A DNA stretch of 63,971 nt, the filler included, from an uncultured Methanosarcinales archaeon (GTDB lineage: Archaea > Nanobdellota > Nanobdellia > Woesearchaeales > CAZKBD01), in assembly GCA_964550945.1 (NCBI GenBank). It is 5 parts of 5 records of this genome, joined end to end, with 100 filler letters (N's around TTAATTAATTAA, not from the genome) between each part and the next. Parts side by side here need not be neighbours in the genome. Positions count along the whole stretch, not along the records: positions 16,835 to 31,964 come from CAZKBD010000039.1; 4 more parts are not named here. One strand, 5' to 3'. The position numbers and the translations under genes are program-made. Below the pieces are notes generated by a model. The model was not told the origin of the DNA. It was given only the letters and a program-made list of their open reading frames with translations, and made no database searches. This document shows, piece by piece, positions 27,839 through 31,961 of the stretch (its first letter is position 1; each line of letters starts with the position of its first letter).

Positions 27839-29158
27839 TCATGGAGGTAACACCACCAACATGCCGTAATCCACAAAATTTGCCGCTTTAATGGCTTTTT
27901 CAAATTTATCTCTTTGTACGTGCACGTCGGGTCCGGCATTTTTTGGACCAACATTATGGTATAATACAGAATCTGTACCTAAGCCCGTTAACAAAGCGTG
28001 GTGCCCACGTAATTTACCGTCATTCTCACCATAGATAACTGTATTGTCTAATGCACAAATTATAACACAATCCCTATAATAAACATCTTCTAACTCCGCC
28101 AGAGTAGGCACCCTAGTTGAATATCTCCCCGAATTTAATACAGTTTGAATTGCTTTCTTTACGGCCTCTTTATTGGTGAAGTTACGGATTAGATGTGCAG
28201 ATTCTGGTCTCAATGCCTTGTAAAAATTATCCAAATCTTCGCTTTGCATAAACTGGTGTGCAAATCTTTCGTTTAAAAAATAAATAATATTAAATCCTTG
28301 ATCCAAAAAATATGCTGCAATCTGAACAAGATGAGTATATTGCGAGTTACGTCTATCAATGATCTCATCCAATCGTTCAAATGAGGGTTTCTCATGCCCG
28401 AAATATTCCATTGCAAGACGGATGCAACTTGGACCGCATCTCGATCCAGATGTAACTTCAAAAGGGAAAAAAGAGGGTGGGATGTTATTTACATGTGGTT
28501 GTTCGTCAATTGATCGCCAAGCTGAAAGACACGATTCGATTTTATTTTCAATATCTTCTGCGTTTCTAACAATATTTTGTGAATGATATTCTACCTCATC
28601 TTCATGCAATCCGGCTTTTTTGCATATATCAACCAATTTGCTAAAAGAGAGTTCTCCCGAAGACAATTTAGCTTTAACTCTAGCACAACTCTGTGATAAT
28701 GCCTCTATATCGGGTTTTTCACTCAGGAAACCGCTTAGTAGCCTCCATGTCAATTCGAGGCTATGATGTAGAAATCGTTTTTCATATCGATAAAAATGAC
28801 CGCTACCTTCAAAGTCAATTAGCTCTACTGCACCATTATCCACAAGAATATTTTGCCAATTGCCATCAATATCTGCAAGGATTAATTTAAGTAGGAGCCC
28901 ATTTATCCCATAGGGGGGTAAAGTTGGAGCGTTATCCTGAAATTTTAGTGTGGTTGCTTGGGGGTTGTATTTGCTAAGTTGATATTGCCTACCTTGATAA
29001 TCTGTCAAAGCAGGATAAGGAACACTAACCCCCCTTAATTTTAGTATTTCAGAAAGATAGAAAGCTATCTGTTCGTTTGCAAAAGGTATCCTTCTATAAG
29101 GTTTAGCTACCCAATCTTGTCTTCCCCATTTTAATATTGATATTAACCTTTTTCTCAT
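27839..29158 (-). CDS. Fusion: HipA/PI3K-like kinase domain + C39-like cysteine peptidase
   Basis: N-term WVAK, ANEQIAF.L..L..VP, DGNWQNILV, LIDFE; C-term CGPSCIRLAMEYFG and GHHALLTG..VLYHN. Confidence 0.6.
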   Translation of the reverse strand: MRKRLISILKWGRQDWVAKPYRRIPFANEQIAFYLSEILKLRGVSVPYPALTDYQGRQYQLSKYNPQATTLKFQDNAPTLPPYGINGLLLKLILADIDGNWQNILVDNGAVELIDFEGSGHFYRYEKRFLHHSLELTWRLLSGFLSEKPDIEALSQSCARVKAKLSSGELSFSKLVDICKKAGLHEDEVEYHSQNIVRNAEDIENKIESCLSAWRSIDEQPHVNNIPPSFFPFEVTSGSRCGPSCIRLAMEYFGHEKPSFERLDEIIDRRNSQYTHLVQIAAYFLDQGFNIIYFLNERFAHQFMQSEDLDNFYKALRPESAHLIRNFTNKEAVKKAIQTVLNSGRYSTRVPTLAELEDVYYRDCVIICALDNTVIYGENDGKLRGHHALLTGLGTDSVLYHNVGPKNAGPDVHVQRDKFEKAIKAANFVDYGMLVVLPP

Positions 29159-29227
29159 GAAAATCTCCCATATACTCCGGACCTTATGCTAGTTTTAGAA
29201 TTAACCACCACCCGAGTCAGACCTAGA

Positions 29228-29400
29228 CTATAGATAATCATTGTATGTAACTGTTTCATGATATTTTGTTTTGTTTCGCTCTAGTTATTATCTTATGTCC
29301 AACGAGTTTTGCCGTTATCGTACCTGAACTTAAACCTATGTTGGGGTTTTTCAATTACTCTTCTGAATTAGGGGTTTCCTATGTTTTGAGGATTTACTTC
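29228..29400 (-). pseudogene. Decayed paralog of the RiPP precursor
   Basis: Reads GNP*FRRVIEK..FKFRYDNGKTRWT*DNN*SETK/KYHETVTYNDYL*; two exact 17-bp matches to the precursor; 5' limit uncertain. Confidence 0.75.
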
Positions 29401-29525
29401 TACATCCATAGATTGCATAGGTTCATCAATGCAACCTTGTTGTTTATTCTTTCTGTCTTGTTTTAGTATCTTATTTAACGTTTAATACATTCATTCTTTA
29501 GTGATTAGACTACTAAAACTGGGTA

Positions 29526-29780
29526 TTATGCAGCCCAATACTCTTCATGGTCATCATAACGAGCTGTTTCATGATATTTTATTTTTGTTTCACGCCAGTC
29601 ATTGTATTCTGTCCAACGAGTTTTGCTCCAGTCGTCATATTTAAATCGAAAACCACCCGAAGATGTCCTTTGTATAACTCTCTTAAGATGAGGATTCTGT
29701 ACTGTTGCTGGGACTACAAAAACACCCATAAATTCTACCATTCTTTCTAAATCTTGATTTGACTGTTCTTTTTTGTTCAT
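29526..29780 (-). CDS. Candidate RiPP precursor peptide (84 aa)
   Basis: ATG one base after rSAM stop, GGTG SD; leader ending SSGG; core with repeated aromatic-x-D/E motifs. Confidence 0.75.
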   Translation of the reverse strand: MNKKEQSNQDLERMVEFMGVFVVPATVQNPHLKRVIQRTSSGGFRFKYDDWSKTRWTEYNDWRETKIKYHETARYDDHEEYWAA

Positions 29781-30906: not shown

Positions 30907-30949
30907 AAGGAGCGTAACTACTTTAAAGTTTATAAATTTTTTGGCTAAA

Positions 30950-31961
30950 TAGTTACGGACATAAATAACGCATAAAATTTTGCATAAAAATATGTTCTGA
31001 CCAAAACGATTCTAACGCCCTTTGCATATCATCAATACTCTCAAAATATTGTGATTTTGTTACTTTGTTTTTTGTGACTTTCCAGCACGTTTCAATAGGG
31101 TTCAACTCAGGAGAATAAGGCGGTAAGAATTCAACATTTATATTTCGATATTCTTCAAGCAGCTTTTTGATACATTGAGTTTTGTGGTATCCTACATTAT
31201 CAAGAACCAAAACATACTTTTTTCTTTTACTAAGCATGTCAAACAAATTTCGAAGAAAATGCTTAAATGTAAGACTATTTTGCGAATCATAAAAATCATA
31301 GAAGAACTTGTGTTTGCTAGTTAGAGCCCCAAATGTAGTTAATTTTTTTGAGCTCCAAAAGAATGCCCCTCGTGGAGTTTCTCCACGAGGAAACCCTATC
31401 TTTTTGTATGTAGTTGTTAGTTGGAATCTTGCTTCATCAACAGCTATGATTTCATGACCCAAATACTCCGTATCGATTTTTTTTTAAATTCCTTGCGAAA
31501 TAGTTTTACTTTGGCAGGATCGTTCTTGATATGTTTTGTTCTGGGAATTATCCTTGAAAAATCAAGCTTATGCAGTATTCTCTGAATGTGTCTTGTAGAA
31601 TAATCTTTCTTTGTGGCATCTTGAATCAAATCGGAAAACTGTTTCGTATCGATAGAGCAAAAGTGCTCATTTGCGTCTTTTACTTTCTTGGTTAACTCCC
31701 GCTTAAGCTTGTTAAGAGTATTTTTTGTTAGTGGCGTTGGTCTTCCACTTCTAGGTTTGTTAAGAACGCTACCTGTCTTTTCATACTTTTCAATCAATCT
31801 GCTTATAGATGATTGATTGCAGCCGATCAGCGCTGCAATTTGCTGTTGTTTTTTGCCTTCTTTTTTCCATTTAAGGATTAGTTCTCTAGTTTGTAGGTTT
31901 ATCATACCTACAATAAAACATAACTTATATATAAATTATGCGTTACTTTTGTCTTATACTA
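30950..31961 (-). mobile_element. IS630-family insertion sequence
   Basis: Imperfect 26-bp terminal inverted repeats (20/26) starting with TA at both ends; encodes HTH and DDE ORFs. Confidence 0.88.
30953..31905 (-). CDS. IS630 transposase (two ORFs joined by a likely -1 frameshift)
   Basis: ORF A HTH with RSGRP; ORF B VDEARF, LDNVGYH, LPPYSPELNPIE; TTTAAAAAAAAA slippery run (T9 at 31477-31485 on +). Confidence 0.88.

Follow-up and report, generated by a model that had tools for sequence, protein, structure and literature searches.

Triceptide (3-CyFE) systems, represented by YxdB, OscB/GrrM, YhhB, HaaB, XncB/XyeB, MscB/FxsB, ChlB, FwwB and MicB, pair a radical SAM/SPASM enzyme lacking an RRE domain with an adjacent leader–core peptide that carries aromatic-x-x motifs. 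The bond that defines them is a C–C link between the aromatic ring at i and C-beta at i+2. Known links include Tyr-x-Asp (YxdB), Trp-x-Asp/Asn (OscB) and His-x-Ala/Arg (HaaB, YhhB), as given in the accessible sections of PMC11002830. The available portion of PMC12912966 adds a Tyr-x-Lys ring and places cleavage of characterised triceptides just ahead of the first motif. In dynobactin, a His nitrogen is linked to a Tyr carbon, with His joined through nitrogen at i, i+2 spacing (parts of PMC11002830 and PMC10288494).

The window, the whole stretch of 63,971 nucleotides that was analysed (filler included), belongs to a 1.97 Mb archaeal assembly that is 92% complete and probably represents a Woesearchaeota-type DPANN archaeon. 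It contains a locus with the triceptide outline, in which an aromatic-x-x precursor adjoins the gene of a radical SAM/SPASM enzyme that likewise has no RRE domain. Unlike the triceptide hosts, the host here is archaeal. Five rings are described for FwwB in the part of PMC11851443 at hand, whereas this precursor carries seven to eight motifs and members of its family up to 18 among the matches listed. His-x-Asp/Glu motifs and Glu acceptors, both present in this family, are not among the triceptide links compared from these partial sources. We consider it probable that the precursor is the substrate of the adjacent enzyme, that Tyr, Trp and His are stapled to the acidic residue at +2 to give about seven rings, and that the leader is then cut by the adjacent protease near Phe44–Lys47.

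The locus and its precursor peptide

All features lie on the minus strand, in the order IS630 transposase, radical SAM/SPASM enzyme, precursor, decayed second precursor copy and 439-aa open reading frame (ORF) (Table 1). The precursor ATG is 1 nt past the stop codon of the enzyme gene. Within the parts covered by contigs of three public runs from two studies, the locus shows zero differences (X1, 28907–29665; X3, 29162–29635; X5, 29171–29344), and X1 and X3 may be source samples. Loose ends at 30947–30957 mark the boundary of a multi-copy element, and related IS630 copies occur in the runs compared.

Table 1. Features of the locus, with positions along the window
Feature	Position	Strand	Remarks
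IS630 transposase, two ORFs	30953..31905 (also given 30950-31905)	minus	NF033545; outside the system
Radical SAM/SPASM maturase, 374 aa	29782..30906	minus	Pfam Radical_SAM and SPASM
Precursor peptide gene, 84 aa, ATG start	29526..29780	minus	listed as protein P0001 in a public collection
V-E-F-M-G leader element, residues 15-19	29724..29738	minus	within modelled enzyme interface (residues 15-20)
N-P-H-L-K-R-V-I leader motif, residues 29-36	29673..29696	minus	predicted enzyme-recognition element
Gly-Gly, residues 42-43	29652..29657	minus	present, poorly conserved
F-R-F-K junction, residues 44-47	29640..29651	minus	family F/Y-x-F/Y leader-core boundary
Core, residues 48-84	29529..29639	minus	seven [Y/W/H]-x-[D/E] and one W-S-K slot
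Decayed second precursor copy (pseudogene)	about 29215..29430	minus	four stop codons, 1-nt deletion
439-aa ORF	27839-29158	minus	N-terminal HipA-like lead and C-terminal peptidase
N-terminal domain, 222 residues	28493..29158	minus	HipA-like kinase lead
C-terminal papain-fold, C39-like cysteine peptidase domain, residues 227-439	27842..28480	minus	Cys241 and His386

The first-pass annotation had described the 84-aa ORF as carrying eight aromatic-x-(D/E/K) triplets, and it reads exactly as quoted: YDD (48–50), WSK (51–53), WTE (56–58), YND (59–61), WRE (62–64), YHE (69–71), YDD (75–77) and HEE (78–80), partly in back-to-back runs. The seven [YWH]-x-[DE] triplets of the core compare with 2.6 expected from 20,000 core shuffles (p about 0.001), and the eight obtained when Lys is allowed at the third place compare with 3.6 (p 0.002). 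The same shuffles gave no excess at spacings +1, +3 or +4. Only one of 1742 six-frame ORFs of 60–130 aa in the same genome has at least seven such triplets.

Database searches with the precursor returned little. A word-index search found the peptide itself as the sole match, Pfam, PHROG and PADLOC gave zero matches, and none of 21 precursors matched an NCBIfam model at a meaningful level.

The decayed copy is real. It aligns with the precursor over 56 codons, of which 17 match exactly, 11 differ synonymously, 24 are changed and 4 have become stops. The earlier suggestion that this copy retains the NPxLxRVI segment holds in part: at 29376–29353 the N, P, R, V and I match, while the His codon has become a stop and the Leu codon specifies Phe. 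The family often duplicates its precursors in tandem, and this accounts for the decayed copy at this locus. At L175:2583-3627, L177:2616-4082, L005:6010-6589, L106 and L115, a single enzyme gene is followed by an array of two to four intact precursors, each holding as many as 18 triplets.

Family-wide aromatic and +2 acidic register

A profile built from 21 enzyme-adjacent ORFs retrieved a precursor family of 213 proteins at E<=1e-3. Statistics were drawn from the 150 matches listed of these 213; removal of the query and 12 seed-like rows left 137, and 129 of these have an anchored leader and core. Among these 129 homologues, [His/Tyr/Trp]-x-[Asp/Glu] fills 1038 of 1500 sites (349 expected), and Phe is not enriched as a donor (8/58). 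The middle residue of the triplet is free to vary, and among the matches listed the most frequent spacing is 3, with triplets back to back.

The profile that retrieved these homologues includes the core, so we repeated the register test on ORFs picked by position alone, namely the next ORF downstream of an enzyme gene from the query's clade, present at 19 of 22 loci. In this set, 103 of 173 Tyr, Trp and His residues carry Asp or Glu at +2, as against 38.7 expected and a maximum of 56 in 2000 shuffles; the loci are kin and not independent samples. Asp and Glu are depleted at +1, +3 and +4. Two of the 19 ORFs, at L086 and L128, have no triplet. The aromatic spacing on which the first-pass annotation had staked its reading is thus kept family-wide. 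Loci outside profile building (L175–L178) hold one to four precursors each, with 7–18 triplets in the eight counted, and the closest enzyme homologues have a small ORF directly downstream with the same leader and a triplet-rich core. These comparisons support the gene as a putative radical-SAM RiPP precursor whose homologues keep an aromatic/+2 acidic register.

Eight triplets had also been called unusually many, which the family contradicts: 82 of the 129 homologue cores among the matches listed hold at least eight acidic triplets, with a median of 9, quartiles of 7–12 and a maximum of 18. Judged by composition, the unusual trait of this precursor is its Trp content. Trp initiates only 37 of 1167 triplets in the family, and at least three W-x-[DEKR] motifs appear in only 4 of 129 cores, both counts being among the matches listed. 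In an alignment of 27 close homologues Y69 is invariant and E71 nearly so. The WSK triplet falls in a conserved basic slot, a second-slot [H/W]-x-[R/K/Q] found in 18 of 129 cores among the matches listed, chiefly in the closest subfamily. Seven triplets fit the family signal, and an eighth ring at WSK is possible but less sure, since a Tyr-x-Lys ring is known from the accessible part of PMC12912966.

Some family members depart from the acidic register. The close relative L086, whose enzyme is 49% identical to the query, has a leader and lacks acidic triplets; at L086:4277-4549 the leader is intact and the core aromatics precede non-acidic residues, a possible change of specificity. The L007 and L015 cores have two acidic triplets each.

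The radical SAM/SPASM enzyme and its predicted leader contact

The enzyme retains the CxxxCxxC motif with all three radical-SAM cysteines and eight cysteines of the SPASM region. Its model (pLDDT 91) superimposes on anSME and ChlB with TM scores of 0.83 and 0.82, and it carries the His of an HGGE motif, as do ChlB and DynA. It passes no curated cut-off in the NCBIfam scan: the bit scores against the cut-offs are 279/450 for DynA, 223/349 for anSME, 134/445 for YhhB, 132/310 for GrrM, 116/425 for AmcB and 100/370 for FxsB. On each of the three-residue cyclophane synthase models in the scan the enzyme thus stays well short of the cut-off (100–134 bits, with 310–445 required). In the tree it sits apart from the branch holding the one annotated GrrM, and its best score is with DynA, which leaves the triceptide membership proposed by the first-pass annotation unproven. 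The system appears to work like the triceptides, yet its enzyme does not reach the family thresholds of either 3-CyFEs or DynA.

DynA (NF041298) is the best model for the query and for all 15 homologues tested, with clade relatives peaking at 341 bits, yet identity to DynA is 30–31% and the W-x-x-N and H-x-aromatic dynobactin motifs are absent from the query core. Three loci over the DynA cut-off, L017, L113 and L138 (480–540 bits), are true members. The precursors of L113 and L138 have a W-x-x-N/H-x-aromatic core without acidic repeats; L017, a Chlamydiales MAG, has an atypical upstream peptide.

An identity as anSME (TIGR03942) was rejected. The enzyme shares its fold and SPASM cysteines, but scores 223 against 349 bits, has Gly after the third SPASM Cys in place of the anSME Asp, and has a peptide rather than a sulfatase as its neighbour. 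We take that Asp to be the catalytic base.

To place the enzyme we built a tree (LG+G4, fast search) from 75 sequences hand-picked from about 170; it is without the characterised YxdB, HaaB and HtkB, and no candidate FxsB or XyeB member was over cut-off (0/5 and 0/151). The query joins other acidic-triplet enzymes in a 33-leaf clade (SH-aLRT 94.5). In this fast search of hand-picked sequences, a 48-leaf clade unites the query group with DynA members (SH-aLRT 96; a tighter 42-leaf clade has 81), and the one annotated GrrM, three sub-cut-off XyeB-model matches, DarW-like and anSME sequences lie outside. The enzyme thus appears to group with DynA, apart from the one annotated GrrM. With the His-N to Tyr carbon link of dynobactin, this grouping makes His-N–C links a live possibility. 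Most enzymes paired with acidic triplets retain Lys187 and Arg282, whereas three DynA members lack both, a pattern that fits carboxylate binding; the conserved Lys14, Lys187 and Arg282 may bind the triplet carboxylate.

The leader is conserved in two elements. E16 and G19 are nearly invariant in the 27 close homologues, where N29 is invariant, and NPx[LIV][RK] occurs in 85 of 137 non-seed homologues among the matches listed, so the leader motif noted at first pass is indeed conserved. In a predicted complex with the enzyme, precursor residues 15–20, 22, 27–32, 34–35, 38–39 and 42 contact enzyme residues 221–252 and 364–373, with the lowest-error contacts at N-P-H-L-K-R-V-I. The model scores 0.90 against 0.02 for the best of three controls; the score mark applied lets through 116 of 157 solved pairs and 2 of 215 mismatched ones. 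At least 36% of contacts recur between runs, and the partner pLDDT is 51–53. The structure prediction thus sides with the recognition role that had been proposed for this helix, with NPxL[RK] as a conserved part of the leader that is predicted to contact the enzyme. A similar complex, that of ChlB with the ChlA leader, has already been solved (9GM3, 25% identity), and the pass may stem from that likeness.

The mechanism that we favour would begin with docking of precursor residues 15–39 on enzyme helices 221–252 and 364–373, as modelled. By analogy with known families, hydrogen would be abstracted at the Asp or Glu side chain and the ring closed onto the aromatic residue two places upstream, with a loss of 2 Da per ring. 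About seven sites would be closed, WSK being less sure, and removal of the leader near Phe44–Lys47 by the adjacent cysteine protease would follow ring closure.

The enzyme could instead alter the acidic residue without closing a ring, through hydroxylation, epimerisation, decarboxylation or a comparable reaction in which the aromatic is needed for recognition only, or the His/Asp-rich core could bind metal. We judge this unlikely. It draws on the position of the enzyme outside every characterised synthase family and on related enzymes that switch outcome with the third residue to ether or hydroxyl products (from the portion of PMC11851443 available); His and Asp also dominate the family cores among the matches listed. 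However, position 1 strictly interchanges His, Tyr and Trp and the middle residue is free, a pattern that matches i, i+2 cross-link motifs. Aromatic cross-links are also what DynA, the closest characterised relative, makes, and this member has only two His.

Enzyme homologues number 389 proteins at E<=1e-40, and two scans gathered at least 80 related loci each. At E<=1e-60, with more distant subfamilies counted in, they occur in 8 of 300 genomes of the order and 15 of 400 of the class; the plasmid and phage collections hold relatives at 25–31% identity only. Several of the related groups have peptides of their own. In Enterobacterales-order genomes (L216, L217), a radical SAM protein at about 310 bits to the XyeB model, below cut-off, accompanies a precursor with four His-x-Ser repeats. 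At L093, L094, L103 and L105 the enzymes fall within the DynA-containing 48-leaf clade and are directly followed by peptides of 60–69 aa that form a separate family; their leader looks related and ends in Y-K-Y-A-F-F, preceded by Y-x-N-V in three. The mostly Bacteroidales enzymes of L013, L019–L021, L024, L027, L029, L099 and L102, sister to the query group, have short upstream peptides, most of which end in Y-N-D-C-H-G-D-Y-[YF]-D. A distant Nanoarchaeia subfamily (L171, L179, L181, L182, L184, L186 and L187; 25–29% identity) has at several loci a short upstream peptide with a single motif, ending S-S-x-x-P-x-[H/Y]-x-[D/E]-like; in five distant Nanoarchaeia loci an APH-family kinase gene directly follows the radical SAM gene. 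In two Woesearchaeales genomes (L170:575-1453 and L173:551-1453), a protein-arginine-methyltransferase-like gene lies directly upstream of a distant radical SAM gene.

Proposed leader removal and the state of the locus

The family could be real and the locus dead, the IS630 element having severed the promoter so that neither synthesis nor modification of the precursor takes place here. This we hold to be very improbable, and it is compatible with the favoured explanation for the family as a whole. Close to the contig end, IS630 stops about 44 nt ahead of where the enzyme gene begins, and the second precursor copy is a pseudogene; on these grounds the locus may be silent. A sigma-70 promoter scan gave chance-level results with a model that leaves out archaeal promoters. 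Against decay, all three of enzyme, precursor and 439-aa ORF remain intact and keep every cluster cysteine and the catalytic Cys and His, while the neighbouring copy has gained four stops.

With PCAT1/ComA double-glycine systems the locus shares a Gly-Gly before the core and a papain-fold peptidase, unlike them in that the Gly-Gly is poorly conserved, the peptidase has no transporter fusion and the 92% complete host genome has zero matches to PF03412 (C39 ABC exporter). A classical double-glycine precursor, cut after Gly42–Gly43 by a C39 peptidase and exported with a core starting at Phe44, is hardly credible: Gly-Gly is the commonest single dipeptide just before the junction and a C39-like peptidase lies within the cluster, yet 98 of 104 homologues among the matches listed lack it there, as do five of the six other peptidase-bearing loci (L012 alone has it) and the decayed copy.

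Gly-Gly is rare elsewhere too, occurring anywhere between helix and first triplet in 13 of 129 homologues among the matches listed and in 2 of 21 seed sequences, the query counted. The dipeptide noted at first pass is present at residues 42–43, but a role as leader cleavage site is not supported: among the matches listed, just 6 of 104 homologues have it directly before the F-x-F junction, and the genome gave no PF03412 exporter. What is conserved is the aromatic-x-aromatic junction, found in 104 of 129 homologues among the matches listed. Because this F/Y-x-F/Y element marks the boundary, the core more likely starts at Tyr48.

The likely leader-removing protease is the C-terminal domain of the 439-aa ORF. 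It has a papain fold with catalytic Cys and His, both invariant across homologues, and its model (pLDDT 88) matches PeiR, phytochelatin synthase, 3erv and the PCAT1 peptidase; the L009 homologue clears the Pfam C39 cut-offs. Stand-alone peptidase homologues directly follow the precursor at L005, L007, L009, L012, L015 and L088, that is, at 6 of 25 distinct related loci, several of which are too short to tell. Of 20 peptidase homologues found in 400 genomes of the class, 18 lack both a precursor and an enzyme in the surrounding 1.5 kb, which points to a recruited, optional partner.

The N-terminal domain has no Pfam, PHROG, PADLOC or PDB sequence match. Compared with the ESM Atlas through language-model features only, it scores 0.90–0.93, with 22 of 30 matches in HipA_2 clusters. 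A second example of this full-length fusion of kinase lead and peptidase is P0122 (Nanoarchaeota, 52% identity), and both fusions keep Lys19, Glu29, Asp98, Asn103 and Asp115, which we presume to correspond to HipA motifs. A bolder reading, which we rate as rather unlikely, is that symbiotic archaea have an enzyme of dynobactin lineage that joins His (via nitrogen), Tyr and Trp to Asp and Glu in ladders of 7–18 rings, and that the fused kinase–protease here phosphorylates and releases a Trp-rich product. If true, it would describe a class of poly-macrocyclic archaeal RiPPs whose linkages are new.

If rings form as in the favoured explanation, aromatic cross-linking RiPP chemistry would extend to small-genome archaea and to Glu and His–Asp linkages, and ring counts would exceed the three to five of the published systems compared, as far as the accessible parts of those sources go. 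One compact RRE-less enzyme taking three donors and two acceptors would make a useful peptide-stapling tool. The locus is a convenient test case, because it brings together a short core, all three donors and a protease. Our literature searches found no paper describing the precursor family; Sugiyama 2022, Clark 2022 and the dynobactin and ChlB papers might list such enzymes. Of the supplements, the spreadsheet of PMC10288494 has no DPANN names, and PMC9062424 no DPANN names or core motifs, in the portions available.

DPANN members make up most of the named carriers, joined by a bacterium of the Kiritimatiellae (L008) and a Muribaculaceae (L011). The patchy distribution of the enzyme across genomes of the order and the class, in organisms that possess few biosynthetic genes, suggests that the system may serve in contact with hosts or competitors. 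The L005 locus has an identical counterpart in G584, a genome of the same order as the host, and the L010 locus is identical to L165 in G184, a genome placed in the window's own order.
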